From Lentisphaerota bacterium (lineage in GTDB: Bacteria; Verrucomicrobiota; Lentisphaeria; Victivallales; UBA1829), in assembly GCA_015061565.1 (NCBI GenBank), contig SUWI01000002.1:1-62964 (forward strand): a stretch of DNA of 62,964 nt. The letters run 5' to 3'. Below the pieces are notes generated by a model that ran no database searches, was not told the DNA's origin, and saw only the letters and a program-made list of their open reading frames with translations. This document shows positions 42,523 to 60,791 of this stretch, in pieces; the stretch's first letter is position 1; each line of letters begins with the position of its first letter. A program made the translations under genes and the position numbers.

Positions 42523-43608
42523 TCAGCGGAGACGGGCGTTACACTGCTGGAGGAAATCACGCAGGACTTTCGCACGCGGTCCGGCGGAATCATCCGTGAA
42601 ATACACCATCTCCCAGGAGATGAGTTTTTCCGCGACTTCGGCGGCATTGCGCATCTGGTGCGCCACCCGGCGCGGATCGGCGGGAACCGCGGAATTGATT
42701 TGAGAACAATCCCGGCATTCGAAGAGTTCCACATTGCTCCAGAAGCGGATCTTCCTGTCATCGCAGATCCGGCGCCAGACCTTGAACATTTCCACCTGGT
42801 GATCGAGCGTGCTGCCGCAGCAGCCGATCGAATCCTGCGGCGCCATGATATCCAGCTGGACACCTTCCAGGATCGTATCCCACGACTCGATCATTTCATC
42901 AAGCTTGCCCTGATAATATTTCGTGGCCGGCGACATCAGGATCTCGCAGCCCGGATGCAGTTTTTTGAGGCGGCCGCAGAAATCGCGGTAGATGCTGTTC
43001 AGGGTCTTTTCCGTGTAAAGGTCTCGCTCGCCGCGGTAGGCGGTCTCCGGCGCGAAATAAATACCTTTGAACTGTCCGCCGTAAAGCTCGAACAATTCAT
43101 CCTGAACGGCAAAGTGATTCTGTTTTTCCTGTTCGACATAGGCAGGATCCTTGCCCATGCACCAGCCGGAAACCGAACCGTAAGCGCCGAGAAAAACCTG
43201 CAGACCGACCTGTTCAGCGGCGGTCAGAACCTTGCCGATGGAATCGAAAAGCCGGTAGGAGGCGAAACGTTTGCTGGGATAATAAACCGTTTCCAGCTCG
43301 TTCCAGACCGCAGCCTGATAGATCACGGTATCCACGCCGAAACTTTTCAGCAGACGGAATTTCTCCGCCCAGTCTTCGACGGAAGCATGGAGCATGGGAA
43401 CGCCCCGGTAATTCGGCGGCTGGGCGCAGATGAACGTGCCGGTGATCGGCATGGCCGGCACGGCGGGAGCATGCGTTTCCATAAACTTGCGGTTGATTTC
43501 GTTCGCCTCGGCATATCTGGCGTTGGCCTCTTCGATAATGTCGTCGGAAGCTTTGAAGATCACGAAATCATCAACGTTGATGATTTTCCAGTTTTTCTTG
43601 GCAGCCAT
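42523..43608 (-). CDS. DUF4434-like glycoside-hydrolase-type TIM-barrel protein (cassette D)
   Basis: 361 aa. The pattern GTFICAQPPNY...SVEDWAEKFRLLKSFGVDTVIYQ resembles DUF4434 (memory-based). Confidence 0.65.
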   Translation of the reverse strand: MAAKKNWKIINVDDFVIFKASDDIIEEANARYAEANEINRKFMETHAPAVPAMPITGTFICAQPPNYRGVPMLHASVEDWAEKFRLLKSFGVDTVIYQAAVWNELETVYYPSKRFASYRLFDSIGKVLTAAEQVGLQVFLGAYGSVSGWCMGKDPAYVEQEKQNHFAVQDELFELYGGQFKGIYFAPETAYRGERDLYTEKTLNSIYRDFCGRLKKLHPGCEILMSPATKYYQGKLDEMIESWDTILEGVQLDIMAPQDSIGCCGSTLDHQVEMFKVWRRICDDRKIRFWSNVELFECRDCSQINSAVPADPRRVAHQMRNAAEVAEKLISWEMVYFTDDSAGPRAKVLRDFLQQCNARLR

Positions 43609-43620
43609 GATTCACCTTCG

Positions 43621-46386
43621 TTATTTGACGATCAGTACGCCGAAATCGTTGCGTTTCATATCGAGAGTGACCGTGCCGCGGGAAATGGCGACCGGTTTTT
43701 CCGTTTCGGCATCGACCACGGTCTTGGTCCCGGCCGGCAGCTTGATCTCGATTTTCTGCGGGGTGCGTGCCAGATTGCTGACGATGGCGAGCTTTTCGCC
43801 TTTCTTGTCATAATAGCTGATGCAGACGTCTTTGGCATCCGTGGTGAGGGCGGTGTTTTCCCAGTAGGGAATGAACTCGACCGCCTTGTTGCCGATATCC
43901 CATTTGCGGCGGATCTCTTCCATCTTCCAGATTTCCTGTTTGTTGCACCACAGCGGCCAGAAGATGACGTCCGCATGCATGATGCGGCTCATCAGGTCGC
44001 GGGTGGGGACCGGCAGTTCCATGATGTCGCGCTGGTTTTTCAGGCAGGGCAGCCAGGCGATGACCGCGCCCCACTGGCGGTGGTAGAACTCGCTGCGGAC
44101 GCGTTCCATGGGCAGGGAATAGCTGTAATAATACATGCGGTCGTGGGCGGGCGGGATCAGCACCGGATCATCCGGGAAATAGCCGCTGTAAAGATGTTCG
44201 CCGGTCAGGAAAACGGTAAAATGGGAAAGCATTTCCATCATGCTGGTCGCGGAACAATGCGCGATGCTCCACGGCGGCAGATTGCCGTTGCGCTTGGCGA
44301 TCACATAATGCATCCGCTTGTAGAGATCGCGGTCGGCCAGCCAGGAATAAGTCGGCCGGCGTTCGCCGTCATAGTCGGTATATCCGCCGCCGGAACGGGC
44401 GTTTTTGTTCGGATCGAGGATCAGTTCGTCGATATACGCGCCGTCGATGGTGCCGAAAACCTCGCCCCACTGGTCGATGCACCAGACGAGATAATCGGCC
44501 CAGGCGCTGGTGCCGGCACAGCGCATCCAGTCAAACCGTCCGGCGCGGGACCGCTGGGGATCGGGGCTCCAGTCGAGGTAAATGCGTTCGGCATCGGGAT
44601 TGACCTTGTTCTTCTGGGAAATGGGCAGATGGCGGCGGTCCCAGTAGGGAACGACTTTCCGTCCGGCGGCACGGTCGCGTTTGACCTTGGCGATGGTGCG
44701 CGGCTTGTTGAGACCGCGGTGCGGTTCGGGATCGAGGCTGATCTGCGCCCATTCATCGGGCCAGTAAACCAGCAGGGAACCGCGGGTCTTGCCTTTGAAT
44801 CCGTCATACTGCGCGCTCATGGTCATCGCCCGCCAGCCGTCGGGCAGCGGTTTGACCGGAGTGGCGATAAAGCCGAAATCGAGCATGAATTCCTTCGGGG
44901 CATTGTCCGGCAGCGGCTGCACGACCATTTTCACCAGCAGATCGGCGCTGCCGTCGGCATTGCGGACGATCTCCAGCAGATCGGTCCGTTTGCGGGGATA
45001 GAAATACTGTTCGCTGCCGACGAAATACTGCAGACCGGACCGGGTGGAACCGAGCCAGGTATGGGTGCCGAAGCGTTTCTGCCAGATCACGCCGGGGGTT
45101 TTCTTCAGTTCGAAAGTATTGCTGCCCAGCGGGCTGGAGGGTCCGTAATCGCCGCCGATCCGGTCGGTCGCACCCACGAAATGCAGGAGCTCGGAGGCAT
45201 TTTTGGCCATGGGCATCCGCAGCGTGAGTTCTTTAACCTTCTCACCCGGCCGCAGGGTCAGTCTGAAATGCACCATGCCGTCGTATTCGAACGTTCCTTT
45301 CAAATCCGCATTGGCGGCCTTTTTGGAAAATTCGACGCGCCCTTTCTGCTGTTTATCCACTTGATATCCGCTGAAAGACAGCGGCTTGCCATTGAGGGTG
45401 ACATTGATGCTTTCGCGCAGGAGTTTTTCATCCTTCGCGGTGACCTGGTCCAGAATGCCGCTGCCGCTGAAATCATAGTCACGCGCCCAGACCGAGAGGG
45501 TCTTGCCCTTCACGGCAACCGGCTGGAACGGCTGCGGGATATAGTCGCCGTCCAAAGCTTCGAGACCGAGTCTGACCCGGTTTTTGAACCAGGGACTGGG
45601 TGCCATGATGGTTTCCTTGGCGAGCACGATCCCTTTTTTCTTTAGTTCGGGGATAAGTTCGCCGGCAATGATGATGATCTCCTTGTCGGTCAGGGCCCGG
45701 TTGTAAATGCGGACCTGCCCGATGGCGGTCAGACCGTTGGCGCCCATTCTGCCGGTCGGTCCGATATTGAAGTATTTCACCGGACTTTCCGGGAACACGA
45801 TAAAGCCTTTCGAGACCTGCCGACCGTCCAGATAGAGCACGGAATTGCCGGTGCCGTCCCAGGTATAGGCCAGATGATGGATGCTGTTGCTCTTCCAGTC
45901 TTTCGGCATGGTGCGGAGGAACAGGGATTTTTTGGTGAGGTTGTTTTTCACATACACGCCGATGCCGTCCCGGCTGTGCTTGTAAACATACATGGTCAGG
46001 TCTTTGGCAACGGTATTCATGAACAGATGGACTTTCGGAGCATCGTATTCCCAGTCGCAGTTCTTCACGGTCATTTCGATAGTTCCGCCGTTCGTGGGGA
46101 AGTTGCCGGCGGCATCATACCGCACACCCGCCCGGCCGGCGCCGACCTGGAGTCCGTAATTGGTCGTGGAAAGGGGATCGAAATCGAACCGCATTTTGCG
46201 TCCCGCGGGCTGCAGCGTCCCCTCCGGGTTGCCTTTGGCGAGCTGGGCCTTGACCGTCTCCTGGCTCAAAGTGTAGTTCACGGTAAAAATGCGGGCTTTT
46301 GCGATTTCCTCCGCAGTCGGAACGGCGGAAAGTTCGACCACGGCCGAGGCGGCCAGCAGTCCGGACAGCAGTTTTGCATTGTTCAT
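43621..46386 (-). CDS. Giant secreted LamG + putative glycoside-hydrolase protein (cassette D)
   Basis: I chose the start at MNNAKLLSGLLAASAVVELSA (ATG 46386, AGGAGA 5 nt upstream); the ORF-track ORF extends to 46494. LamG-type IGQVRIYNRALTDKEI. It shares FGFIATPVKPLPDGW and GAYIDE with 18003..21842 and 56070..59960. Confidence 0.8.
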   Translation of the reverse strand: MNNAKLLSGLLAASAVVELSAVPTAEEIAKARIFTVNYTLSQETVKAQLAKGNPEGTLQPAGRKMRFDFDPLSTTNYGLQVGAGRAGVRYDAAGNFPTNGGTIEMTVKNCDWEYDAPKVHLFMNTVAKDLTMYVYKHSRDGIGVYVKNNLTKKSLFLRTMPKDWKSNSIHHLAYTWDGTGNSVLYLDGRQVSKGFIVFPESPVKYFNIGPTGRMGANGLTAIGQVRIYNRALTDKEIIIIAGELIPELKKKGIVLAKETIMAPSPWFKNRVRLGLEALDGDYIPQPFQPVAVKGKTLSVWARDYDFSGSGILDQVTAKDEKLLRESINVTLNGKPLSFSGYQVDKQQKGRVEFSKKAANADLKGTFEYDGMVHFRLTLRPGEKVKELTLRMPMAKNASELLHFVGATDRIGGDYGPSSPLGSNTFELKKTPGVIWQKRFGTHTWLGSTRSGLQYFVGSEQYFYPRKRTDLLEIVRNADGSADLLVKMVVQPLPDNAPKEFMLDFGFIATPVKPLPDGWRAMTMSAQYDGFKGKTRGSLLVYWPDEWAQISLDPEPHRGLNKPRTIAKVKRDRAAGRKVVPYWDRRHLPISQKNKVNPDAERIYLDWSPDPQRSRAGRFDWMRCAGTSAWADYLVWCIDQWGEVFGTIDGAYIDELILDPNKNARSGGGYTDYDGERRPTYSWLADRDLYKRMHYVIAKRNGNLPPWSIAHCSATSMMEMLSHFTVFLTGEHLYSGYFPDDPVLIPPAHDRMYYYSYSLPMERVRSEFYHRQWGAVIAWLPCLKNQRDIMELPVPTRDLMSRIMHADVIFWPLWCNKQEIWKMEEIRRKWDIGNKAVEFIPYWENTALTTDAKDVCISYYDKKGEKLAIVSNLARTPQKIEIKLPAGTKTVVDAETEKPVAISRGTVTLDMKRNDFGVLIVK

Positions 46387-46513
46387 GCTGTTCTCCTGTT
46401 TCATATTGTCATTATCGGTATTGTTCGTCGATGGGGGAAACCGTTCCGGTACGGCGGAAGCCTGTTCCCAAACGGATCCGGTTTTCTTTTTCATGAAACG
46501 TTCTTAACGGAAA

Positions 46514-47326
46514 TCAGAGAGTCCGGTTTCTGACATTGGTCCGATCCCAGAAATTATTGCCATCTCCAATATTCATGCGGCCGGAAAGATTGCCGAGCAC
46601 GTCGTAGCAACCGAACGGATATCTGGCTTTGATGGGACGGGCCGAACCGTCGCACCAGCCGATGTTGCAGACATCCTTATGTGAGGCATGTGCGACGACA
46701 TCGGAAATGCGGGTGTAGGGATAGCAGCTGGAATGGCCAAGCGTCGGATCCGTATAATTATAAGAATCCAGCATGAATATGGTCGCCGACGGTTTGCCGA
46801 TCTCCCGGTCCCGGGCAGGCAGATTATTCCAGTTGCTAAACGCCGGAGAACCAGCCGTTTTACTGATCCAGAAACTGCCGGTGATCTTGAAATGATTGGT
46901 CCCGTAAGTGTTGACATAAGTCTTCGGCATATCGCCGACGACCCAGATCCGCTTGGTAGGGCAAGAGTATGACTTCAGGTTTTTCATGTTGTAGGTGGAC
47001 CAGAAATGATACGCCCAGGTGACATCACCCAGAGAATTCGGAACGAAATAACCGTTGTTGTCCGACTGGTACATCCCGTTCGTCAATCCCAGCTGTCTAA
47101 TGTTGGACATGCAGGAGGTGGACTGTGCCTTGACCTTGGCAGCGTTCAGCGCCGGCAGCAGCATTCCCGCCAGGATCGCGATGATCGCAATCACCACCAG
47201 GAGCTCTATCAGGGTAAAATGCCTTGGCATTTTACCCTTCAAATATGAAATATGATCCTCCTCCACTCTTCGAGCTATGGAGGACAAGGAGATGAAATAT
47301 GAGTTGCCGACTGTGTTCTTGTTCAT
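46514..47326 (-). CDS. Prepilin-like DUF1559 / H-X9-DG family protein (cassette D)
   Basis: 270 aa. Long leader [36 protein letters not shown], then [31 protein letters not shown]9-DG motif: [13 protein letters not shown]. Confidence 0.85.
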
Positions 47327-47380
47327 GTCGTTTTCCTTTCTTCCGCATTCGAGTTCAGAAAATCATAAAAAACTATTTAT

Positions 47381-47409: not shown

Positions 47410-47427
47410 CTCGGATATTGGAATATT

Positions 47428-48609
47428 TCAGCCGGAAGCAGGCGGAGCGGACGTAAAATTTTCCTGTTCCAGCCAGAGGCCGCTGCGGAGCAGCCATTCG
47501 ATCTCCCGGCGGAACGGGAAATCCGGCTTTTCAAGCAATTTTTCCGCTCTGCGCCGTTTATTTTCGGGAAGCGGTTGACAAAATGATTTATGCGCTTCCA
47601 AATCTTCCGAAGTGCATCGATACAGGGAGAGCGGATGGATCCGGTGCAGGACAGCTGCAATTTCATAGCCTTCCGGATCGGAATCGCCCCAGTGTCTGAG
47701 GACAGTATTCGGGGATAGGCATGCAATCAGTTTACGGACGGCCTTTCCGGGAAAACCGGCCGTGTAAACGAGGGTGAAATCCGGATTCTGCTTCATGGTG
47801 CGGTTGAATACGGATTCATTTTCAATAGTCAGAACCGGGAACTCGGACTCCAAGCGGTCAATATCTTTGAGATTGTCCCAGGAAAGCATGGCGCTTTGCC
47901 TCATCCCGAAAAGAGTTTTGATCCAATCCAGGTCCTGACCGCGGGAATGGTAAATCACGGGTCCGAAAACGGCGGCTGTGGATGCCGTGGGATTGGATGT
48001 CATGCCATAATGTTCCAGCAACAGACCATCGGGCAGCTGCGAACCGGTCAATTGGCGGAGCAAGCGGCAGCTCCAGGAAAGGAGCTGAGTGTTTTTCAGC
48101 CGTTTTGAATCCCGGAACAGACCGGCGCTGATCTCCGCCGGAGCGGCAGGTTCGGGTGCGTCCATCAGATATTGCGCGGTTTTCCACGCATCAAGGAGCA
48201 GCGAATAATCGGGAGCATCGCGCCGGGAAAGTTCCGGACGGAATTCCTGCCAGTCGATCCCGGGAACGGCAAAACGGAGGCGATGATACAATTCTTCGCC
48301 GGGATGACCGGTTTCCGGAGGCGTGAATCCAGAGGTCTCGCGCAGGATGTCCAGCCACAGATCGAATGCGCCGCCCAGGGTCAGCCGGAGTTTCGTCAGA
48401 TCCAGCACCGGCCTGCCGTTCCGCCGGATGACGCAGTTGAGGAAGAAATTGGCCAAGGTTTCCGGAGGCCCCTGGGGGAGTGACAGGGTTTTGGCTTCGG
48501 GATTGCGCAGCAGACACCTGAGGAGGGAGTGAGAGGCAGACTTCAGGACCGGCGATTGGGCAAGCAGTTTGAGCTGCCCCGCCCGGAATGTTTCTTCCTG
48601 CGGAGTCAT
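47428..48609 (-). CDS. jetD: Wadjet nuclease subunit JetD (MksG-like, Toprim domain)
   Basis: 393 aa. C-terminal Toprim-like motifs VLTIENESVF and RHWGDSDPEGYEIAAVL. Its start overlaps the jetC stop (ATGA). It is the fourth gene of the A-B-C-D size pattern. Confidence 0.8.
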   Translation of the reverse strand: MTPQEETFRAGQLKLLAQSPVLKSASHSLLRCLLRNPEAKTLSLPQGPPETLANFFLNCVIRRNGRPVLDLTKLRLTLGGAFDLWLDILRETSGFTPPETGHPGEELYHRLRFAVPGIDWQEFRPELSRRDAPDYSLLLDAWKTAQYLMDAPEPAAPAEISAGLFRDSKRLKNTQLLSWSCRLLRQLTGSQLPDGLLLEHYGMTSNPTASTAAVFGPVIYHSRGQDLDWIKTLFGMRQSAMLSWDNLKDIDRLESEFPVLTIENESVFNRTMKQNPDFTLVYTAGFPGKAVRKLIACLSPNTVLRHWGDSDPEGYEIAAVLHRIHPLSLYRCTSEDLEAHKSFCQPLPENKRRRAEKLLEKPDFPFRREIEWLLRSGLWLEQENFTSAPPASG

Positions 48610-51600
48610 TCAAGTTCAGCTCCCTGCTTCAGGTTTTCAGGATCGGAAAGGAGCTCGGGATCGCGCGTCCAGTTATACCAGATCAGGTGGACTTGATAAT
48701 TTTTGTCTTTGCGGACAAAAATATTGGTCGAGCTGGCCAGTTCGACTTTCATGCCGTCCTGATTGGGGGAAGCGATCATAAGCTGGAGTCCGAGTTCTTC
48801 GGCGAAAGCCAGCAGCTGATTCTGCCGGAGCGGGTCGATGCCGTAAAAAGCCTCATCGAAGAGGATCGTGTTGATTTTGATCCGGGAACTGGTTCCCTCG
48901 GTTTTATCGAAGAGGAGATGAGCGATCATCATTACCAGCAGATAATTAGGCACGGCCTGTTCGCCGCCGGAACCGACGCTTTTGGTGCGGGTGTCCATGA
49001 CCTTGTCGGCGGACCCGGCGGAATGGAGCATCATATTGTACTGAAAATAATTCCGGTAGTCCAGCACGGGCGGGAGCACGCCGGCGGGAGTGTCCAGGAT
49101 CTCATTCGCATGGAGCATGAAAATTTCCTTGAGCTCTTCACTGCTTTCGGGGATCTGATCGGAAAAACTGCGGATGACGCGCACCAGCGCGGCATATTCG
49201 GGCAGCGGGGTCACGTTCAGACTGTAGGTGCTGCGTCCGAAGGTGTGGCCGGAAAGCGTGCGGTTGATCTGATTTTCCATGTTTTCAAGCGCAAAAATGC
49301 GCTGCCGCAGGGAATTCCGGAACTGCTCCAGAAGAATCCGCTCAAAGTTGCGGCGGGTATCGGCGTTGAGAATTTCCTTCTGCTGCTGGACCGCGGTTTG
49401 AAGCCGTTCATACAATTCGCCGATGGTCCGGTGCTCACGGCTGAAAAGTTCGTTGCCATCTTCATGATAGGAAAACCCGTATTCGATGCCTTCCGCATTC
49501 ATGATTTTGGAGGTGACGGATCCAATGAGCTTGTCGTGTTCTTTTTTCAGGACGGCGCGGGCATTGGAACAGGCATCGGTATCGGCGATTCGCTGTTCGG
49601 CGAGATATTTTTGCAGACTTTCCTCGGTGCGGCAGCCGTTTTCCGGGGTCAGGGATCCATGGTATTTCCGGGAAATCTCTTCAAAAGCGGTTTCCCGGGA
49701 CCGCAGCTGTTCCTGAAGGTCGCCGTAACGCGCCTCCGCCGAGACCACAGCATCATGGTCATGCAGGAAAATCTTCCTGATATTCTCCAGTTCGGTGCTG
49801 ATTTTGCGGATTTCCGCATCGAGATTTTCCAGATTTTTTTCTTTGATCTGGGCACGGAGATAGTTCAGGTTCCGGCGGGCGTCTTCAAGTTCCTGACGGC
49901 GCATTTCCATGGCAGCAGAATTATCCTCGATTGCTTTGTTGACCGCGGCCAATTGGGCCGTGTTTTCGGCTGCGGCCGCAGTTTTCCGCCGGATCTGTTC
50001 AAAAAGATGGATGATCCGGTCATTGAATCGGGTGAACGATTTGAGCCGTTTTTCAGCGCCGGCGAACTGGGCGGCAGCCTGTTTGCAGATTTCCTCTTTG
50101 GATACCAGGACTTCCCTGGCGTCGGCGATCCTGCGTTTCTGTTCTGCCTGGCGTTCCTCTTCGCCAATCAGTTTGGCCGGAATGCCGCAGAGGACGCGAT
50201 AGGTCCCATGCCACGTCACACTTCCCGGGTCCGTGAGGTTTTCAAATTCGGGGATGGTATATCCGTCCAGTTCTCTGGCCAGGACTTCAAGCCAGGCAGC
50301 ATCGTGTTCGGAATCGAAAAATTGATCGAGGAATTCGCGGATCCTGCCGGAGGGTTCAGGGATCTTTTCAGAATAAAGCGCTGCGCACCTGGCGCCTGGA
50401 TAATCGTCGCGTAGAAGCTGTTTGATCCTGCTGATGGATTCTTCTTCGGCGACCAGTGTTGCCAGAATATCCTCGCCGATGAGTTCTTCCACGGCGCTCC
50501 GCATACCGGGGGTAAGGTTTTTCCGCCAATGGAGCCTGGTGTACAAGGGGTCGGCAGGGAGCATTTCCCGGCTCAGATCGGCAAGCAGGTCATTGTAATG
50601 CGGCAGATGTTCCGGCAGGGCTTCCTCCAGCGCTTCCAGTTTTTTCAAATCCGTCTCCGCCGCTTCGAAGTCCTTCCGGGCCGTTTCGGCATGCTCCGAA
50701 GCGGTTTGACGCAGATATTTCAGGCGCTCGCCATATCCGCCGAAGGCATTTTCCAATGACTTCAACGGCTGAAAATCCAGGTTCCGGTCCGGTTCCTTGC
50801 CGACTTGTGCCTGCTGCACCGCCGCCAAGGCCGGATTCAGCGGCAGATCGGACCAATCCGAGAGTTCTTCGGAGAGTTTTCCGGAAAGGGTGCTCAGGAC
50901 ATCCCTCAGTTCCGAACGGTTTTTCTCCAGTTCGGCGGCCAGGAGCTCTTTTTGACTGGAAAAATTCCGGTCCTTTTCACACAGCTGCTCCAGCTGTCCG
51001 CCCAATTGATCCGCCAGTTTTGCCCGGCTTTTTTCGGTTTCGATCAGAGAAGAAGAATCCCGGTCTTTCAAGTCGGCAAGCGCACGCTCCATGGATTGAA
51101 CCCGGATTTCGGACTGATTCCGGATGAGCCTCATACGGTCGATTTCAACGGACATCTCATCGGCTTTGGCGCGAATGCCTTCGAGCAGGAGCCGCTGCTT
51201 GTTCCGTTCAAAATACAGGAGTCCGATCTCCAGAATACGGATTTCCCTGCGGAGTTTGTCAATACTCACTTTGATGCGGTTGAGTTCGCCCAGATATTCG
51301 CAGCGTTTTTCCAGGGAATTGAGGGCGGAATTGGATTCCCGCAGGGCGCGCAGGCTGTTCCGGAGTTCCTGCAGGGTTTCGGCGTCCGGTTCAGGCAGGA
51401 GGCTTTTGAAAAGTTCATGATAATTGCCCGCCCGGCTGGAGATTTCCCGGTAGGCCTTGCACATGTTCAGGAATTTCCGGTATTCATGATATTGTGCCGG
51501 GGTCGGAAAGAATTCCCTGGCCAGCGCCTGCGAAAACGAGGTCATCCCCGTATAATAGCGGCCGTTCATTTTCAAAACCGCTTTTTTGAATTCCTCCCGG

Positions 51601-52073
51601 TCCGGCGGATATTCCTGACCGTTTTCATCTTTGAGCAGCAGCGGCAGAGCGGAAACGGGACAGGAACAGCGGAATCCCCATTGCTGAAGCGGCGCATTCA
51701 CTCCGGCAATGGAAAGACCGATCCCGATACAGACCGGATTGCCGGATTCGTTCTGAAGTTCCAGCGCGGCATAAGTCACCCGTCCATCGGGGAATCGCGG
51801 TCCGGTATCCACATTGTATGCCGTGACCGCGCCGTTGATGCGGCGTCCGTTCGCTTTGCTGCCGCCCAATCGGGCTGCTGAATTCAGTTCCACATCCTCG
51901 CCGGCCGACAGCACATAATGAATGGCGTCCAGGATCGTCGTTTTCCCGGAACCGTTGTCTCCCATCAGAAAAAGATGGCCACCGTTTTTCAGCGGTATCG
52001 TGACCGAGTTGATGTTATGGAAGTTGACTAAGCGGACAGCGAAAACCGAATATATTTCCCGGTCAATCCTCAT
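48606..52073 (-). CDS. jetC: Wadjet SMC-like ATPase JetC (MksB-like)
   Basis: I chose the start at MRIDREIYSV (ATG 52073); the ORF-track ORF extends to 52112. It has Walker A MGDNGSGKTT, a long central region rich in coiled-coil-type heptads, the ABC signature GSGGEQ and Walker B ILFDEAF. Confidence 0.9.
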   Translation of the reverse strand: MRIDREIYSVFAVRLVNFHNINSVTIPLKNGGHLFLMGDNGSGKTTILDAIHYVLSAGEDVELNSAARLGGSKANGRRINGAVTAYNVDTGPRFPDGRVTYAALELQNESGNPVCIGIGLSIAGVNAPLQQWGFRCSCPVSALPLLLKDENGQEYPPDREEFKKAVLKMNGRYYTGMTSFSQALAREFFPTPAQYHEYRKFLNMCKAYREISSRAGNYHELFKSLLPEPDAETLQELRNSLRALRESNSALNSLEKRCEYLGELNRIKVSIDKLRREIRILEIGLLYFERNKQRLLLEGIRAKADEMSVEIDRMRLIRNQSEIRVQSMERALADLKDRDSSSLIETEKSRAKLADQLGGQLEQLCEKDRNFSSQKELLAAELEKNRSELRDVLSTLSGKLSEELSDWSDLPLNPALAAVQQAQVGKEPDRNLDFQPLKSLENAFGGYGERLKYLRQTASEHAETARKDFEAAETDLKKLEALEEALPEHLPHYNDLLADLSREMLPADPLYTRLHWRKNLTPGMRSAVEELIGEDILATLVAEEESISRIKQLLRDDYPGARCAALYSEKIPEPSGRIREFLDQFFDSEHDAAWLEVLARELDGYTIPEFENLTDPGSVTWHGTYRVLCGIPAKLIGEEERQAEQKRRIADAREVLVSKEEICKQAAAQFAGAEKRLKSFTRFNDRIIHLFEQIRRKTAAAAENTAQLAAVNKAIEDNSAAMEMRRQELEDARRNLNYLRAQIKEKNLENLDAEIRKISTELENIRKIFLHDHDAVVSAEARYGDLQEQLRSRETAFEEISRKYHGSLTPENGCRTEESLQKYLAEQRIADTDACSNARAVLKKEHDKLIGSVTSKIMNAEGIEYGFSYHEDGNELFSREHRTIGELYERLQTAVQQQKEILNADTRRNFERILLEQFRNSLRQRIFALENMENQINRTLSGHTFGRSTYSLNVTPLPEYAALVRVIRSFSDQIPESSEELKEIFMLHANEILDTPAGVLPPVLDYRNYFQYNMMLHSAGSADKVMDTRTKSVGSGGEQAVPNYLLVMMIAHLLFDKTEGTSSRIKINTILFDEAFYGIDPLRQNQLLAFAEELGLQLMIASPNQDGMKVELASSTNIFVRKDKNYQVHLIWYNWTRDPELLSDPENLKQGAELE

Positions 52074-52704
52074 GGCGGAGCTCCTCCAGGTTCTTCTCCA
52101 ACGCGCCGGCATTGTATTGGTAACAGGCCGGCAGGGCTTCGTAAATCACTTTGTCCTGTTCGACCCGTTCCCCGGCTTCGCGCGGCAGTTCACGCAGAAA
52201 ACGATAGGTCAGCAGCTTCGGCATCAGCGGACGGAGTATATTTTTCTTGACCGCCTCGGCTTCCAGATCGGTCCGTTCCGGAAACAGTGCCCGCATCCGG
52301 TTTACCGTGTATTCCAGGTATTCTCCGAATAAAAAACGCGGATTTTCCCGGTCGGAAGCGGAAAGCGACTGTTCCGACAGCAGTTTTTCATAAAATTCAA
52401 TCAGCAGCAGGAACGCAATATATTCGTTCCGTCCCTGCAGCTTGAATTCGACGATCCCGGCATGACCGAGCGCGGGATTGAAGATTTTTTTCTTGACCAG
52501 GCGGGCGCATTTGGAATCCAGGCGCAGCTCCCAGCCGAAATTCTTCCGGTAGAACTCCCGGAACGCAGATTCATAATGCTGAAGTTCATAGAAACGTTCC
52601 GGATCATCGGTTTTGTAGAACCACGCCGATTCCAGCAGAATATTGTTGATCGCGATAAATTGATCCGGGTATTTGCCAAGCAGAGTTTCGTAATCAGTTT
52701 CCAT
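52063..52704 (-). CDS. jetB: Wadjet subunit JetB (MksE-like)
   Basis: 213 aa. It overlaps jetC by 11 nt and jetA by 11 nt. The size and position fit JetB. No enzymatic motif is present. Confidence 0.7.
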   Translation of the reverse strand: METDYETLLGKYPDQFIAINNILLESAWFYKTDDPERFYELQHYESAFREFYRKNFGWELRLDSKCARLVKKKIFNPALGHAGIVEFKLQGRNEYIAFLLLIEFYEKLLSEQSLSASDRENPRFLFGEYLEYTVNRMRALFPERTDLEAEAVKKNILRPLMPKLLTYRFLRELPREAGERVEQDKVIYEALPACYQYNAGALEKNLEELRHED

Positions 52705-54169
52705 GCGGACCGGTCTCCTTCAATATAGTTTGCGGACCATCCAGCGTCCCTTCCGGAAACCGGATCAGAGATTTTCCCTCCGGATGGATTTCCAGTTTTT
52801 TTCCGATAGTCATCAGCATCCGGCCTTCGCCGGTGAGTCCGTATTTCAGCAGCATCCCCACTTCGGCGAGTTCGCCGCGTTCAAGCTGACCTTGTTCCAG
52901 CGGACCATTTTCAGGGTAACGCAGCTTCAGGAATTCAGACAGCTGGCGCAAACGCATCTCTTCATGGGTTTCGACCCGCTCTTCCGATAACTTTACAGTC
53001 CGGGAAAAGGTCCGCGGGGGAATTCTCCTTCCGCCGCTGCCGAAACGCGGAGCGGGCGGTTCCGCTTTCTGGAATTCATCGGCGTCGTTCATATCCAGCG
53101 GCGCCGCGGCAGGAGTCAGCAGTTCCCGCAGAAAATCCGGAGCTTCGAACGATTCGGGTTTCCCCGCCAGTTCCAGAAGCCGCAGGTTGATGAATTCAAG
53201 ACGATTGCTCCGCCGTTCCAGCTCTTTCAGAAAACTCGTCAGCTTGCCCAGCACTTTCATGGCATTTTCATGCACGGAAGCGCATAGTTTGTCCACTTGT
53301 CCGCCGCGTCCGTAATATTCCAGGAGATGTTCCGGGAATTTCCGGATCTCAGTTCTCAATCCGCCGGTCCGCATGAACTGCGGCCGCATCCGCTGTTCCG
53401 CCTCAAACAGTTCTTCGCATCTGCGCAGCTGTTCCGGACGGGTCCCCGTGTTCAGCTGTTCGAGTTCCTTCAGGATGCCGGACCGCAGCTTGAAAAGCTG
53501 CTGCAGGTAATGCTTGAAATATGCATCCAGTCCATTGACCGTCTCCCGCGCCTCTTCCGGCGTGTAGCTTTTCAGCAGAAATTCCCCCAGCCGGATGGTG
53601 ATTTGATTCAAATTGCGGCTGAGCCGGGCGGTTTTTTCCTCCACATCCCCCAGTGCGAAAATCACTGCCGAATAACGGCTTTCCGAGTCCCGCAGATTCC
53701 GCCCGATTTGTTTGATGGAACCCAGGATGAATTCCAGCAGATTGACCGAATCGTCCTCCTTCGGCAGCAGGTCCGAGGCATGCCGTTCCTCCAGCCAGTT
53801 CAGGAAAGCGATCGTTTCATCCGTCAGTCGGTAACGGAACATATCACGCCGGACATCCCGATACGAACGGATTCTGGTTTTCTCGATCCGCTTGACCACA
53901 ATGTTCCAGTTTTCCAGCTGCTGCATCACCTGATTGAACCGGGCGGAATCAGGAAGTTCTTTTTCCCCGGAGCGGGGATAACTTTCCAATGCGGTCTGAA
54001 ACAGATCCTCCCGCAGGATTTCCAGCTCGTGCCTGCGGCGGAAATCCAGCAGGGTGCACAGGATATGCAGATAATCCGCGGCAAATTCCGAACTGAACAT
54101 GCTGCCCAGATTCCGATTTCGGAATTCCAGCAGTTTTTCCGCATCCATCGCTGTCTTATCTGTTTCCAT
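52694..54169 (-). CDS. jetA: Wadjet subunit JetA (MksF-like kleisin-type)
   Basis: 491 aa. It is the first gene of the overlapping four-gene set. The size and position fit JetA. No enzymatic motif is present. Confidence 0.7.
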   Translation of the reverse strand: METDKTAMDAEKLLEFRNRNLGSMFSSEFAADYLHILCTLLDFRRRHELEILREDLFQTALESYPRSGEKELPDSARFNQVMQQLENWNIVVKRIEKTRIRSYRDVRRDMFRYRLTDETIAFLNWLEERHASDLLPKEDDSVNLLEFILGSIKQIGRNLRDSESRYSAVIFALGDVEEKTARLSRNLNQITIRLGEFLLKSYTPEEARETVNGLDAYFKHYLQQLFKLRSGILKELEQLNTGTRPEQLRRCEELFEAEQRMRPQFMRTGGLRTEIRKFPEHLLEYYGRGGQVDKLCASVHENAMKVLGKLTSFLKELERRSNRLEFINLRLLELAGKPESFEAPDFLRELLTPAAAPLDMNDADEFQKAEPPAPRFGSGGRRIPPRTFSRTVKLSEERVETHEEMRLRQLSEFLKLRYPENGPLEQGQLERGELAEVGMLLKYGLTGEGRMLMTIGKKLEIHPEGKSLIRFPEGTLDGPQTILKETGPHGN

Positions 54170-54257
54170 AGCCCGACTATCCGATTTGATGTTTATTCAG
54201 GTTTCCAATCTGTCACGGTTCAAGAATATCCGCTGCCACAGCATGTCGGCATGCAGT

Positions 54258-55904
54258 TCATTTCCGTCTTTTGCGGGACAGTCCCTTCTTTCCCCGTTTC
54301 TGGAACATATCGGATAATTTCTTAAACGTTTTCTCAAGGGTCCGGCATTCTTCATAAGTCTTTTTCAATTTGTCGATCTCAGGATCGTCAGGGAAATTTT
54401 CCAGTGCTTTCAAGAAAGATTTTGTCTCGTCAAATTTCCTTTGACGGAGGTAAAAACGACCTTGCGAAAGGAACCATTGCTTCATTGCATCCGGATGGGT
54501 TTTCTCAGGCATCTTAAGTGTTTTAATCAGCTGCATGCCTTCCTCATAATGCTCTTGGCACCCCAGGATATCCAGCAGCATTGCATGGGCGAAAAGATAT
54601 TCCGGATGTTCCTGAACCAGACGCCGGACGATTTTTTCCGGTTCGTCACTTTTCACGCCGCTGTTGTATATTGCGACTGCGAGATTGTATTCCGCCGGGA
54701 AGAAATCCGGACATTTGAACAGCATTTCCCGGTAACGTCCGGCAATCTTTTCCCAATCTGGATTTTCTTCATGCGATGAAAAAACGATTTTTTCATACTC
54801 CTCGGCAAAATCCTCCGGAAGAGGACAAAATTTATGCTCCGGATCGAGTTCAATGGTGAACAGCAGCTGTGACGATTTCCGGCCTTTGTGCTGCATTTCA
54901 ATCACCTCTCCGGATTTGATGTCGCCGCGCTCCAGCAGGATCACACTGGCATATTGACGCAGTTCATCGCTGCCGAAAGAACCAGAAACCAGTTTTTTGA
55001 GAAATGCCGCGGCTTCCGGATGCAGATTGTCTTTCAACACGTCGAGAGCCGGTTTCTTGTCTTTGTGGTTCGGATCATTGAGAACGGATTCGACAAAATC
55101 GATCACCCAGCGATGCTTCAGAACCGGATTGGAAAGAGTTTTGTCATCTTTGAGCAAACGCTCCAAATAAAAATCAGATGAAACCAGCATAGGCCAATCT
55201 CCGCGAAAACTGACGGGCCGCGCTCCTTTCTCCAGCAGTTCCAGATAACGTTCCGCCAATTCAAATTTCGGATCATCAGAGTTGACCCACCTCAGATATT
55301 CAATCGCCAAACCGGTATCTCCGACATTGGCCGCTGCGCAGCCGGCCCAGAATGTCATTTCCGAAGCATCCGCATGGGGATTGGAAAAAGCAAACTCGAA
55401 CAGATCCTGATACAGGTGCAGCCGTGCAAACATTTCGCAAATCTTCAACGCCGCTTCCAAAGAAATATCATCTTGGGAGGCCGCAATATACAGAGCATTG
55501 GCTGCGGCCGCATCTTCATCATTGAAATACAGGAACAATGACAAGTTCGCCAATCCGAATGCCGGAAGAAAACATGACTTCTTCAGAAAATCACGTTGGA
55601 TTTTCAGGGCTTCATCAAGGTTTCCAAGCATGAAACAGCATAATGCCAGATTATTAACCGGATTGGGAATATCGGGATTGAGTTCTATCGATTTTTTGAA
55701 AAGCGGAATTGCCTCTTCGAATTTCCTTTCCCCCATCAGCCTATATCCTTGATAATGGTATTTTTCTGCTTTTTTATACTGGCTTTCACTGATCGACGGG
55801 CCCGTTGCCGACGGTTCGAAAATTCTATGCTGGCAGCAGAAGCGGTATTTCTTCCCGCTACCGCAGTAGCAGGGTGCATAAGGATCTATTTTATTTTTCA
55901 GCAT
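54258..55904 (-). CDS. SEC-C metal-binding motif + TPR-repeat protein
   Basis: I chose the ATG at 55904 (GGAG 5 nt upstream); the ORF-track GTG is at 55910. The SEC-C motif is N-terminal: PCYCGSGKKYRFCC. TPR-like helical repeats follow (AIPLFKKSIELNPDIPNPVNNLALCCFMLGNLDEALK and others), with a basic C-terminal tail. Confidence 0.8.
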   Translation of the reverse strand: MLKNKIDPYAPCYCGSGKKYRFCCQHRIFEPSATGPSISESQYKKAEKYHYQGYRLMGERKFEEAIPLFKKSIELNPDIPNPVNNLALCCFMLGNLDEALKIQRDFLKKSCFLPAFGLANLSLFLYFNDEDAAAANALYIAASQDDISLEAALKICEMFARLHLYQDLFEFAFSNPHADASEMTFWAGCAAANVGDTGLAIEYLRWVNSDDPKFELAERYLELLEKGARPVSFRGDWPMLVSSDFYLERLLKDDKTLSNPVLKHRWVIDFVESVLNDPNHKDKKPALDVLKDNLHPEAAAFLKKLVSGSFGSDELRQYASVILLERGDIKSGEVIEMQHKGRKSSQLLFTIELDPEHKFCPLPEDFAEEYEKIVFSSHEENPDWEKIAGRYREMLFKCPDFFPAEYNLAVAIYNSGVKSDEPEKIVRRLVQEHPEYLFAHAMLLDILGCQEHYEEGMQLIKTLKMPEKTHPDAMKQWFLSQGRFYLRQRKFDETKSFLKALENFPDDPEIDKLKKTYEECRTLEKTFKKLSDMFQKRGKKGLSRKRRK

Positions 55905-55966
55905 AATCACTCCATTTGCCGGAAATTATCAATTCCAAGTGCAGAATACACAATATCTGAAAATGT

Positions 55967-55994
55967 AATATAATCCAGGAAGTCACATTTTCAA
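55967..55994 (-). promoter_or_regulatory. Candidate promoter upstream of the SEC-C/TPR gene (and possibly of jetABCD)
   Basis: The minus strand reads TTGAAA-N16-TATATT. Confidence 0.4.
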
Positions 55995-56069
55995 ATAAAA
56001 AACCAACTTTGTCCGGCTGATATTTCTGCTGGAGGCAAGCGGAACCGCCGCAAATTCAGCTGCGCGGGT

Positions 56070-59000
56070 TCATTCGAGTTCGACGACCGCGAAGGAATGA
56101 TAGTCGAGCGTCATTTTGAGCATGCCGCCGCTGACGGAATCGACCTTGGAGCCGAAATCGCCGAGTTTCAGCGGTGCGCGGATGGACGGGACGCGGCAAT
56201 TCTTCCGCTGTTCGAAAAGCCAGTCGTAATCGGGGTCGGGCGCGGTCATGCGGTCAGTGGCTTTCGAGAACGGCTTCAAGCCCAGTTTCGCGGCGTCGAA
56301 CGCGATTTCGAGGTTCTGTTTTTCATGTCCTTTGCCGATGTGCGAGATCACGGCGAGCGCCTTGCCGTTACGCTTGTAAACGCTCACATAGATGTCCTTG
56401 CCGGAGACGACGCGGGCGGGGTTTTCCCAGTAGCCGAAAAACTGCGCCTGCGGCACGCCGAAGCTGCGGTAGATTCGGAGCAGGCGGTCGAAGATGCCGT
56501 AATGACAGCGGTTGCCTGCCGGGAGCGTGTTGTGAGGCAGGGCGCCGGCCAGGAACGCTTTGGTGATACGGAATTTGTAGAGCTCGGGGTCCTCCTTGCC
56601 TCCGCCATATTTGGGGAGCAGGACATCGGTCGACTGGTAATCGGAATTGGTCAGGCCGAACGGCATCGACCCGAGCTCGCTGGCGAACATGGCAACATCG
56701 TAGGTATCGAGAATGTCCTTGCCGTTGTGCATGATCGAGCTGCTCTGCTGGCGGATGTGTTCGCCGTTGAACAGATGTGTGGCGAAAGTCATCGCGGGCA
56801 GCTGCACGGTGTCGGTGTTGTGGAGCATGATGACGGGGTCTTTGATCCCGGCGTCGAGCTGGACCAGGCAGAGGCGGCGGTAGAATTCGCGCTGTGCCAG
56901 ATACGGAGTCCGGCTGCGGCAGCCGTGCTCGGCATTGCTGCAGGTCGGGACCGTGCCGAAATCAAGGTAGATGCCGTCGACTTTGAACCGTTCGAGCATC
57001 TTCTTGAACTTCCACACGAAGAACGCACTGGCGGAACTGACGGGACAGCAGTCGATCAGGAATGCCTTCCCTTTTTCCGTGTTGTAGTCGAGCAGGTTTT
57101 CAGGCACCATGCGCCATTCCTCGCGGAACGCGGCGACCTCGGGATATTCATCCGAAAGATAACGGTCGAGATTGTAGGGAATGAACCTCACGCCGTATTT
57201 GCGTGCAGCGGCGATCTGGTCGGCAAACGTCTGGTTTCCCTTGAAACTTCCGGGCGCGGGCAGGTCGGCGAAGCACCGTCCGAGCGCGCCTCCGGTCGAG
57301 CCGAGCACCAGGTCCTGGATCTTTTCCGGGCGGGTCAGCGGGGCGACATACGACCAAGTGTAGAAGTTGCACGGATAATTCGCCGGGAATGGACGCACCG
57401 GGCTCGCCAGCAGGCCGAACTCGAAATCAAGTTTTTCACCCTTTTTCAGCCGTTCGGCGAGTGAAACTTCGAACACGGTCTCGTCTTCGTTCCGGTTCAG
57501 CGAATAGACCTGACGCGAACGGTTTTTCCAGGTCGCGGAGGTTTCGGTGAAGAAGCAGAGTCCCTTGTCCTCCATGCCGATCCAAACCATCGGGTAATAC
57601 TGCAGGACCTGCCGGCCCGGCTGGATCCGCCGGGTGAGCTTGGCGCCCCACGAGCAGGAGCTCGAGCTGGCATGGAGATATTTTGCCAGCAAGGCCGGTA
57701 TCCGGATGCGGAGTTTGAGACCTTTCAGGTTTTCCTTCGCGGTCAGCGCGAGCCGGAAATATGACACTCCGTCATATTCGATCCAGCCGCGGTTCTCCGT
57801 AAAACAGCGCCCGCTGTCATGCAATGCGGTGAATTCCGTCCGGTGCGGTTCGGACTTGCCGTGCGCGACACGCGCGCTTCCGAGCGGCTTGCCGTCGGCG
57901 ATCAGTTCGACCGGGCCTTTCAGCAGCTCGACCCCGCGGGACTTTGCGGAAACGGGGAAGAGGCTCTGTTTCCAAGTGTAGGTGCGGCCCCACATCGAGG
58001 CGGCGAACCCGCCCTCCGTCCTGCGGGTCTGCATCGGCGTGAACGGCGGAATGATCCGGTTGTCGAACTTCATTGACGCCCACTCTCCGAAGCCCGGGAA
58101 ATGGATCTGTTTTTCCGACAGCAGGACGGCATTGTTTTTTCCGTTCAGGATGATCTTGTAATCGCCGGCAGGATTGTTACGGTCGAACGGAAGATCGACC
58201 GGCGCATCGTCCTTGACCGGGAGTTCGGCGACCGTCTTTTTGTCCGGGCTCTGCAGCCTCAGAGTGTACGGCGCGGCGTCGGCAAATTTTGAACGGATCA
58301 TGAATATGCGCGGCTTCACCCGGATTCTGCCTTGTTCAAACTTCGGCGAGGCGGCGAAGAGGTCTTCGTTCAGTTTGAATGGGCGGACCTGGCGCATCAG
58401 CAGCGTCCTGCCCTGCCGGAGCGAGAACAGCAGTCCGTCATACATGGTCTGCCGGATCGGGATCGCGAATGTTTCTTCCTGCGGTTTGCCCGCGGTCAGC
58501 GCGATTTCACGCGAAAAGAGCAAACCGGGCGGGATGCTGCCGTCCATGCGGACACCGGAAACCTCATACATGACTTTCGTGTTTTCCGGCGCGCAGAACG
58601 AAACTTTCTGCGTCAGATTGCCGAATTCAGGCGTGCCCTGCTCCACGATCTGCATCGCGGGGACGCTGAGAAAACGCGCGGTCTGGAAGGTTTCCGGCTT
58701 GACATAATCGCCGTTCCACGAACTGGAACTGAGACAGCTCAGTTCGGGCAGCAGCCAGGAACGGCTGAAATTCAGTTTCAGACCGGTCCGCGGGGGTGCT
58801 TTCAGTCCGATGGATTGCCACGGGATCGCGATCTCGCCTTCCCACAGTTTCCGGTCGTCGATCCGGTGAACCAGACGGGTCTTGTAAGTCCAGGTCCCAT
58901 TCCATTTCGGGTCATGCCGTTTGGATGCACTGCCGCCGCCGGAGACATTGCCGGCGAAACGGTAAAAGGCATCCCCGTCAAGGATGCGGAATTCGAACGA

Positions 59001-59960
59001 TTCGAAGCCCCATGCGACCTCGCTTTTCGAGCCCGGCGCATTGACGGGACCCATGCGGATCTCAGTATTCGGGAACAGCGCGGTGAAACCGAGATAAAGA
59101 TTGTCCCTGTCCCACATGTACCTGAAGGTATTGGGCGGCAGCCGCCAGCCTTTGAGCGGATCGCCGCGCAGGTCGTTGAGCCCGATGAAGGACCCGGCAC
59201 ACTGCCAGGCGGGATCGTCCAGTTTGCCGTCGATCTCCGGTTTCTTCTGCGCCTCGGGGATCAGCAGGACCGCGGGGAACTGTTCGGGCGCGGATTTGCT
59301 TTTGACCCCGCATTCCCGCTGGATCTCGGTGGGATCGAGCTCGCGGTCCCAGACTTTCAGCAGACCGATGCGGTTTTCTTCACCCCACGGTCTGGGGCGG
59401 TACCAGCTGTCGGAATACGGACCGATGTTCAGCGTGGTGACGTTCTTCACCTGGACTTCCTGCTTGCGCTCCTGCAGCAGTTTGCCGTTGAAATAGCACC
59501 GGACCCGGTCGCCGTTCCAGGTGATCGCGGCATAAAAAACCGTGCCATTCTTGATTTCCTTGCCATTGGAAACGAAAATATTTTTCTTCTGGTCGGCAAA
59601 ACCGAAAATACACTGGCGGTTTCCCAGCGTGTAAATCGAAACATACAGGCGGCCGTTGGTCCGGAGCGTGACCAGATACCGCGCGCCTTTGAATTGCGGC
59701 TGGAAGGGTTCCATGGTCAATTTCGCGAGGATCGTCCCTTTTTCCCCGGCGAGCCCGGCAGCGGGGATTGCGAAGCATTTCGGTCCGAAAAACATCATGC
59801 CGTCCTGAATTTTACCATCGAAGGCAACGGTTGTTTTTCCGAAGGTGATCTCCTGCGGACGGTCGAACTTCAGGTCGAGCGTGGGGGCGGATCCCTCCGC
59901 CTGAACGGCAACGGCTGCGATCACGGTCAGAAGGAAGCTGAAAAAAGTCTTGATTTTCAT
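56070..59960 (-). CDS. Giant secreted LamG + CBM9-like + putative glycoside-hydrolase protein (cassette E)
   Basis: Start at MKIKTFFSFLLTVIAAVAVQAEG (ATG 59960; an alternative ATG is at 59969). LamG-type LLKVWDRELDPTEIQRE. CBM9-like KPEIDGKLDDPAWQ...FEFRILD. It shares FGLLASPVRPFP and VDGIYLDFG with the cassette A and D enzymes. Confidence 0.8.
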   Translation of the reverse strand: MKIKTFFSFLLTVIAAVAVQAEGSAPTLDLKFDRPQEITFGKTTVAFDGKIQDGMMFFGPKCFAIPAAGLAGEKGTILAKLTMEPFQPQFKGARYLVTLRTNGRLYVSIYTLGNRQCIFGFADQKKNIFVSNGKEIKNGTVFYAAITWNGDRVRCYFNGKLLQERKQEVQVKNVTTLNIGPYSDSWYRPRPWGEENRIGLLKVWDRELDPTEIQRECGVKSKSAPEQFPAVLLIPEAQKKPEIDGKLDDPAWQCAGSFIGLNDLRGDPLKGWRLPPNTFRYMWDRDNLYLGFTALFPNTEIRMGPVNAPGSKSEVAWGFESFEFRILDGDAFYRFAGNVSGGGSASKRHDPKWNGTWTYKTRLVHRIDDRKLWEGEIAIPWQSIGLKAPPRTGLKLNFSRSWLLPELSCLSSSSWNGDYVKPETFQTARFLSVPAMQIVEQGTPEFGNLTQKVSFCAPENTKVMYEVSGVRMDGSIPPGLLFSREIALTAGKPQEETFAIPIRQTMYDGLLFSLRQGRTLLMRQVRPFKLNEDLFAASPKFEQGRIRVKPRIFMIRSKFADAAPYTLRLQSPDKKTVAELPVKDDAPVDLPFDRNNPAGDYKIILNGKNNAVLLSEKQIHFPGFGEWASMKFDNRIIPPFTPMQTRRTEGGFAASMWGRTYTWKQSLFPVSAKSRGVELLKGPVELIADGKPLGSARVAHGKSEPHRTEFTALHDSGRCFTENRGWIEYDGVSYFRLALTAKENLKGLKLRIRIPALLAKYLHASSSSCSWGAKLTRRIQPGRQVLQYYPMVWIGMEDKGLCFFTETSATWKNRSRQVYSLNRNEDETVFEVSLAERLKKGEKLDFEFGLLASPVRPFPANYPCNFYTWSYVAPLTRPEKIQDLVLGSTGGALGRCFADLPAPGSFKGNQTFADQIAAARKYGVRFIPYNLDRYLSDEYPEVAAFREEWRMVPENLLDYNTEKGKAFLIDCCPVSSASAFFVWKFKKMLERFKVDGIYLDFGTVPTCSNAEHGCRSRTPYLAQREFYRRLCLVQLDAGIKDPVIMLHNTDTVQLPAMTFATHLFNGEHIRQQSSSIMHNGKDILDTYDVAMFASELGSMPFGLTNSDYQSTDVLLPKYGGGKEDPELYKFRITKAFLAGALPHNTLPAGNRCHYGIFDRLLRIYRSFGVPQAQFFGYWENPARVVSGKDIYVSVYKRNGKALAVISHIGKGHEKQNLEIAFDAAKLGLKPFSKATDRMTAPDPDYDWLFEQRKNCRVPSIRAPLKLGDFGSKVDSVSGGMLKMTLDYHSFAVVELE

Positions 59961-59990
59961 GATTGACATTTCCTTATTTTAACTCTGAAA

Positions 59991-60770
<780 letters not shown>

Positions 60771-60791
60771 GTTCTGTCTCCTTTTTTAAGT

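Follow-up and report, generated by a model that had tools for sequence, protein, structure and literature searches.

A SEC-C/TPR gene at the head of a repeat-bounded Wadjet cassette in a Lentisphaerota bacterium is probably a passenger and not a conserved fifth component

We analyzed a stretch of 62,964 nucleotides (nt) from a gut Lentisphaerota bacterium (GenBank assembly GCA_015061565.1, contig SUWI01000002.1; hereafter, the window) that carries on its minus strand a Wadjet anti-plasmid operon, jetABCD, directly preceded by a gene for a protein with a SEC-C zinc motif and tetratricopeptide (TPR) repeats. An earlier reading of the letters alone (the sequence-only reading) had proposed this SEC-C/TPR gene as a possible fifth component of the system. 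Judged by gene neighborhoods, the gene does not qualify as a conserved fifth component of Wadjet, since the pairing recurs neither among its relatives nor among related Wadjet operons. The genes and signals at the locus are the following.

54258 to 55904, minus strand: SEC-C-motif/TPR gene, encoding 548 amino acids (aa) (open reading frame call, domains and AlphaFold2 [AF2] model).
52694 to 54169, minus strand: jetA, kleisin-like, DUF2397 (profile matches; ATG at 54169).
52063 to 52704, minus strand: jetB, KITE-like, N-terminal part of DUF2398, 213 aa (profile matches).
48606 to 52112, minus strand: jetC, SMC-like ATPase (profile matches).
47428 to 48609, minus strand: jetD, Toprim nuclease, its last codons and stop codon inside the right direct repeat.
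54170 to 54257, minus strand: spacer from the TPR stop codon to the jetA start, 88 nt, without significant structure.
55967 to 55994, minus strand: sigma-70-like promoter candidate TTGAAA-16-TATATT, inside the cassette and 25 nt from its left border.
47447 to 56019, minus strand: insertion cassette of ~8.6 kb with the TPR gene and jetABCD, delimited by empty sites in the related genome G002 and the metagenome X5.
56020 to 56043, minus strand: left copy of the direct repeat, 24 nt, TCCGCTTGCCTCCAGCAGAAATAT (repeat search).
47423 to 47446, minus strand: right copy of the direct repeat, TCCGCCTGCTTCCGGCTGAAATAT, with the same sequence as the one copy that G002 has at its empty site.

The reading frame of the SEC-C/TPR gene runs from an ATG at 55904 (an in-frame GTG lies at 55910) to a stop codon at 54258, and its product has all the features first ascribed to it: 548 aa, an N-terminal SEC-C motif, TPR repeats, a basic tail and an end 88 nt before jetA. 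The zinc-knuckle motif, PCYCGSGKKYRFCC, occupies residues 11-24 and the Lys/Arg-rich tail reads KRGKKGLSRKRRK. Two Pfam profiles for TPR repeats matched above their cut-offs (TPR_19, PF14559, 44.4 bits against 25; TPR_2, PF07719, 39.1 bits against 27). The SEC-C profile (PF02810) scored 16.7 bits, under its gathering cut-off of 20.4, a point of difference from other SEC-C proteins. The AF2 model (pLDDT 86.9, pTM 0.68, built on 17 relatives) begins with a zinc-knuckle-like part, continues as a long all-helical TPR solenoid, has a beta-hairpin at residues 334-347 and finishes in a long C-terminal helix with the basic tail. Whole-protein Foldseek comparisons against the PDB and a PDB profile search returned generic TPR folds only. 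The best matches were TPR scaffolds (the OGT TPR domain, Tom70/71 and subunits of the APC/C), which resemble the model in their all-helical solenoid but with TM-scores of only 0.17-0.26 and 10-17% identity, a likeness of fold class without functional implication. Profiles above cut-off, a modeled helical solenoid and TPR structures as best matches together place the predicted product among the TPR repeat proteins. In a protein atlas the query fell in its own SEC-C/TPR cluster of 60 members, the other clusters being generic TPR ones, and a scan of the 548-aa protein against NCBIfam gave only matches far under cut-off. Matches to E2 and E1-E2 models of PADLOC (E about 1e-3, residues 3-51) were rejected as evidence of a ubiquitin-like system because they span the zinc motif only.

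The Cys-rich GSGKKY(K/R)xCC knuckle is shared with the C-terminal metal-binding domain of SecA and with YecA and YchJ. According to the available portions of the published accounts, the SecA domain coordinates metal and binds SecB and ribosomes (10.1101/613315), YecA is a chaperone and YchJ a redox-sensing regulator (10.1101/2020.07.21.215244; PMC13377102). Unlike in these proteins, the motif in the window is N-terminal and fused to a TPR solenoid of ~500 residues, with no SecA, UPF0149 or YchJ core. The sequence-only reading remarked that the motif is usually C-terminal, which is true of SecA. Copies at the N-terminus are nevertheless common: of 80 genome loci retained, 64 match the query only in about its first 80 residues (mostly the first 30), that is, around the SEC-C motif.

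A word-based search recovered 18 clear relatives of the protein (28-90% identity); when 1.84 billion representatives were searched with a profile, 617 proteins reached E <= 1e-30. Of the best 150, 29 are giant multi-TPR proteins, and the other 121 span the profile in no more than two stretches. The family comes in two length classes, of roughly 500-590 aa and 650-760 aa, and its named records belong to Kiritimatiellae, Lentisphaeria/Victivallales/Oligosphaeraceae, Verrucomicrobia and Planctomycetota, plus one deltaproteobacterial metagenome-assembled genome. The zinc motif is present in all 15 N-terminally complete rows of a 17-sequence alignment (the two other rows are without the N-terminus) and invariant across an 11-sequence alignment; in the relative P0019 the SEC-C domain reaches 27.4 bits, above the cut-off value of 20.4. 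The spread of the family is patchy, with a relative in one of 60 related genomes (G002, 55% identity). Long-form relatives (660-777 aa; loci L076, L078, L079, L080, L082 and L084, and P0019) share a conserved C-terminal extension of ~150 aa, which has weak Rho_N/SAP matches in three of six long relatives (E 0.0013-0.087). Its AF2 model (pLDDT 87.0) bears a weak resemblance to winged-helix domains, with a best Foldseek E of 0.028 and none reaching 0.001. The short-form protein of the window has its Lys/Arg tail in place of this winged-helix-like extension.

The four downstream genes match the JetA-D profiles of Wadjet (JetABCD, also MksBEFG or EptABCD), the anti-plasmid SMC system; the SEC-C/TPR gene differs in that it matches no Jet family and accompanies no other Wadjet operon examined. 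The NCBIfam models for type II (TIGR02677-02680) were the best matches but scored far under their cut-offs (for example, 37.3 versus 165.85 bits for JetA), and PADLOC returned a mixture of type I and type II best matches across the operon. By these profile scores the operon is a Wadjet of an unassigned lineage, the type II cut-offs being missed by all four models. At 213 aa, JetB of the window falls short of its profiles (363-376 positions), and two relatives within the phylum (L179 and L180) have jetD upstream of jetA. The available portions of a 2025 preprint on type II (10.1101/2025.03.10.642339) and of a 2023 review (PMC10586767) describe Wadjet as a four-gene system in three types, as the sequence-only reading had stated, and make no mention of a fifth or extra gene. 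A literature search at the level of titles found no SEC-C/TPR protein in defense.

The TPR gene and jetABCD occupy a discrete segment. The stretch between the two repeat copies holds no genes but the TPR gene, with its promoter candidate, and the four jet genes. The copies are imperfect, with 20 of 24 positions identical, and in the 5.45-Mb assembly (G000) the repeat occurs only at 47423-47446 and 56020-56043. Genome G002, from a congener, has one copy, at its empty site, and the repeat was not found in four other congeners, G001, G003, G004 and G006. On contig C283 of G002, the orthologue of the upstream LamG/GH123 gene (LamG-1299, 87% nt identity) is joined directly to the equivalent of window positions 47457-47380 (94%), which a DNA search across the genus identifies as the stretch just past jetD; the empty site lies at 2359-2436 of that contig (loci L157/L164). 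The metagenome X5, an independent DNA run, holds both states. In the empty state, one contig joins 47447 to 56045 and skips 8597 nt. In the filled state, a contig covering 51423-54536 crosses the junction of jetA and the TPR gene with 96 differences in 3114 nt (about 3%), and another covers 54534-56017 with 94 differences and 9 gaps and continues past 56017 with 78 unlike letters, so that its left flank may belong to another site. The LamG orthologues in G006 and G003 have no TPR or jet gene downstream. The cassette is thus present or absent as one unit, at an intergenic site between two glycan-related gene pairs. Because the TPR gene and jetABCD are missing as a unit in G002 and X5 and their junction is kept in X5, they appear to have been gained or lost together. 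The proposal that the gene was acquired with jetABCD gains support from three observations, the repeat-bounded segment, the absence as a unit and the junction kept in X5.

The domain content of the five genes includes no match to an integrase or transposase family, and no tRNA target was seen at the site. The segment thereby resembles repeat-flanked islets without a recombinase of their own, as a discrete insertion/deletion polymorphism of 8.6 kb with imperfect 24-nt direct repeats and empty sites in relatives; it differs in that the right junction falls within the last codons of jetD, with no integrase, transposase or tRNA target in sight. JetD of G002 is ~30 aa longer than that of the window (424 versus 393 aa).

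In composition the cassette is uneven. The SEC-C/TPR gene is indeed the most AT-rich part of the block, as first noted, with a GC content of 0.462 versus 0.51-0.57 for the jet genes; at third codon positions (GC3) the TPR gene stands at 0.50, below the 0.62-0.64 of the jet genes and the 0.66-0.76 of the flanking genes. Its relatives in other genomes show no systematic bias toward AT (mean difference -0.006, negative in 14 of 27). Because GC3 differs in this way and the relatives elsewhere are not AT-rich, the cassette is by composition a mosaic whose TPR and jet parts have no long shared history.

The surroundings of the cassette have been rearranged as well. It sits between two paralogous gene pairs (43621-47326 and 56070-60770), each made of an N-terminal-methylation protein of the DUF1559 type and a large Laminin_G_3/GH123_N protein. 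In G002, ~1.3 kb of unrelated DNA (L164 on C283, 2437-3768) replaces the window genes for the N-methyl (270 aa) and LamG/GH123 (957 aa) proteins, and similarity resumes at window position 42535 (92%), which makes the interval 42535-47380 a rearrangement hotspot. The 5' ends of the prepilin-like N-methyl/DUF1559 genes (47140-47260 and 60580-60790) are repeated very many times in the genome and its congeners: dozens of listed DNA matches at 75-92% identity in G000, many more per congener, and a very high summed contig depth in the runs compared.

The central claim of the sequence-only reading, a conserved fifth partner of Wadjet, was examined from both sides. We assembled 72 loci of relatives, 55 from metagenomes, 16 from genomes (matches extending beyond the zinc motif) and one from G002, and searched them by tblastn with JetA-D of the window; for the metagenome and genome sets, three diverged Jet sets were used in addition. 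No jet gene was detected near a TPR relative in the metagenome (0/55), genome (0/16) or G002 (0/1) loci. At least 1.5 kb of downstream sequence was available at 37 of the 58 strongly matching loci, equal to 27 of 34 clusters at 80% identity. From the other side, JetA relatives turned up in 5 of the 60 related genomes and, in a phylum-wide sample of 400 genomes, in 17. Among the five related genomes with jetA, only G002 also has a TPR relative, and on a different contig. Searches with 59 TPR-family queries covered 20 jet loci and found no relative upstream of jetA at any; in 18, the upstream flank available was at least 1.3 kb. Genes annotated in that position are dxr and two divergent genes, for a radical-SAM enzyme and for Memo. 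The tally is therefore 0/72 loci of relatives with jet genes and 0/18 flanked jet operons with a relative. The sequence-only reading had held that its proposal would fail if homologues showed no preferential linkage to Wadjet or defense islands, and neither linkage was detected.

Genome G002 offers the closest comparison. Its jetABCD operon is orthologous to that of the window (JetA 80%, JetB 89%, JetC 78% and JetD 70% identity) and is preceded by a PDC-M07A/B pair and a TrwC relaxase, not by a TPR gene. DNA homology between the two operons extends from 47457 to 54160 only, ending 9 nt inside jetA, and the spacers upstream of jetA gave no alignment. The TPR relative of G002 neighbors a GntR-type regulator and a PDC-S01 ATPase. 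The G002 operon (L065, contig C548, 9368-13147) lies directly behind the candidate defense pair PDC-M07A/B (an AAA_21 ATPase and a 152-aa protein) and beside a TrwC relaxase/helicase; because it adjoins the TrwC gene, it is probably carried on a conjugative or mobilizable element. Across the family, the Pfam-annotated neighbors are diverse and mostly metabolic or regulatory, among them a GntR/sugar-binding regulator (L001 and G002), transporters, adenine deaminase, CstA with sigma-54, Rex, PFOR and many unknowns. No neighbor is conserved across the whole family in the Pfam annotation of the loci, and even close relatives (at least 80% identity) differ in their downstream genes.

How the cassette is transcribed bears on what the TPR gene could mean for the operon. 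The genes jetA, B, C and D overlap one another and the TPR gene is set apart by the 88-nt spacer. TTGAAA-16-TATATT is, as previously claimed, the best promoter match between 52000 and 56600 (10 of 12 positions). Promoter-like sites in the region number 5, versus 3.6 +/- 2.0 in shuffles, so that this site taken alone does not stand above chance. No promoter-like site was detected inside the spacer (54170-54257); a weak one (9/12) lies at 54376-54347, inside the TPR gene. The small hairpin pointed out earlier, GCATG-CCGA-CATGC, is present at 54254-54241 with five pairs and without a T-run. A terminator in the spacer was considered and rejected, its two short weak hairpins being within chance expectation and its fold z-score 0.00 versus shuffles. 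In the metatranscriptome assembly X15, a 254-nt contig with one difference covers 54049-54302 and bridges the whole spacer, with 121 nt of jetA on one side and 45 nt of the TPR gene on the other. Other pieces of X15 map to the TPR gene and to jetA, jetB and jetC, and X15 as a whole covers 15 of 30 bins. Runs X16 (RNA) and X2 (DNA) have pieces in jetA and in the TPR gene, none across the junction. The claim that the gene is transcribed with jetABCD thus draws on the bridging contig and on a spacer with no significant terminator or promoter, and a shared transcript is probable only.

We regard it as probable that the SEC-C/TPR gene is a passenger scaffold gene that was fused upstream of a Wadjet module when the cassette formed, that its promoter may now serve the operon, and that its product is not a Wadjet component. 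Transcription from the TPR-gene promoter would probably read through the spacer into jetABCD, because the only good promoter candidate is upstream of the TPR gene and the spacer holds no convincing terminator or promoter. The gene would then matter to this Wadjet copy mainly as the supplier of a transcription start. The protein itself would be a cytoplasmic scaffold, with an N-terminal SecA-like Cys4 knuckle to bind metal, a TPR superhelix to contact other proteins and a Lys/Arg-rich tail that may reach nucleic acid. Its own role would be independent of Wadjet, most likely as an adaptor, chaperone-like or regulatory scaffold of the Planctomycetes-Verrucomicrobia-Chlamydiae (PVC) group bacteria that carry it.

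Several points weigh against this explanation. The TPR gene lies on the strand of jetABCD, within one cassette and possibly on one transcript, and a second strain from independent sampling (X5) has retained this arrangement. A shared cassette and strand are also what a recently recruited accessory gene would look like. The genomic context of the closest database relatives, P0002 (90%) and P0003 (87%), is covered only by the X5 contigs. The X15 contig fits read-through, but co-transcription is only plausible because contigs from RNA libraries come without strand or ends and may be DNA carry-over. As for the protein's own function, we infer it from its domains only. Finally, relatives often stand beside toxin-antitoxin or defense-like genes (AbiE, DarTG, type I restriction-modification, RhuM, YhcG and PDC-S01), and because such neighbors are frequent, the family may have a general link to variable or defense regions.

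The first alternative is that the gene is an accessory or regulator specific to this lineage, recently recruited to its Wadjet, for example as an adaptor for tethering or gating JetABCD or as a sensor controlling the expression of the system. Such a role would account for five genes on one strand in a single repeat-bounded cassette, for a junction that persists in the X5 strain and for an RNA-library contig that bridges a spacer devoid of promoter-like sites; by its domains, a TPR scaffold with a basic tail would also suit an adaptor. We consider it unlikely. The two parts do not co-occur outside this species-level lineage (0/72 loci and 0/18 operons), and the orthologous operon of G002 is without the TPR gene, its homology breaking at the start codon of jetA. 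The composition of the TPR gene is also unlike that of the jet genes, and its 88-nt gap to jetA is set against the overlaps that join jetA, B, C and D. A bolder form of the idea seems to us improbable. In it, a metal-binding TPR scaffold with a nucleic-acid-binding tail would have joined JetABCD in this Wadjet lineage of gut PVC bacteria as a fifth protein with a regulating or targeting role (for example, by coupling plasmid restriction to redox or metal signals that the Cys4 knuckle senses), and the family, its long forms ending in a winged-helix-like module, would be a portable sensor or adaptor for changing defense and toxin-antitoxin modules.

A second alternative would make the family a general protein of variable regions or defense islands, acting alone or with changing partners in defense, counter-defense or mobile-element biology, with Wadjet as one of many neighbors. 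In 10 of 34 clusters, relatives do have a defense-like or toxin-antitoxin gene no more than three genes away, as with type I restriction-modification and BrnTA (L022), DarTG and RhuM (L079), AbiE and YhcG (L084) and PDC-S01 (L002 and L058), and an SNF2 helicase is also found among such neighbors. At L084 (7918-12371), a YhcG-type nuclease gene and the TPR relative stand between an AbiEi gene and a fragment of AbiEii, an arrangement that looks as though an insertion had split the toxin-antitoxin pair. The differing downstream genes of close relatives and the patchy distribution (1/60 related genomes) would fit as well. To set these counts against a local control, we compared credible PADLOC matches at gene positions 1-3 and 5-9 from the relatives, after setting aside look-alikes of housekeeping proteins (DprA, TopA, cysteine-desulfurase-like, an LolE-like permease and a beta-galactosidase-like protein) and three ambiguous near matches (a helix-turn-helix protein, a subtilase and a Ser/Thr kinase). 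Near positions held 17 matches in 183 proteins and far positions 6 in 110 (Fisher p = 0.27); by cluster, the counts were 10/34 near and 6/23 far (p = 1.0). The control is a rough one, because the near set has some loci of the same 80% cluster and short metagenome contigs favor variable regions. An enrichment next to defense genes, the check proposed in the sequence-only reading, was thus not detected relative to genes 5-9 positions away. With no signal of proximity, many relatives amid ordinary metabolic genes and no neighbor kept across the family, we find this alternative doubtful at best.

That the two parts are independent neighbors, having reached a recombination hotspot separately and with jetABCD driven by an unrecognized promoter, located either in the spacer or at the 3' end of the TPR gene, would agree with their different compositions, the further rearrangement of the locus in G002 (1.3 kb in place of the next two genes), the weak site at 54376-54347 and the chance that PVC bacteria use promoters outside the model of our scan, but it is very unlikely, as a single pair of direct repeats encloses the two parts, the empty sites lack both and the RNA-library contig crosses the spacer.

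Had the TPR gene been a real fifth subunit, the four-protein model of a well-studied anti-plasmid machine would change; the evidence says otherwise. With the SEC-C/TPR gene as a probable passenger, the locus provides a clean example of a Wadjet operon that moves as a tiny repeat-bounded cassette without a recombinase of its own, and of such a cassette picking up a foreign upstream gene and probably its promoter too. It also gives a first description of an uncharacterized protein family that would combine a SecA-like metal knuckle with a TPR solenoid, followed by either a basic tail or a winged-helix-like end.

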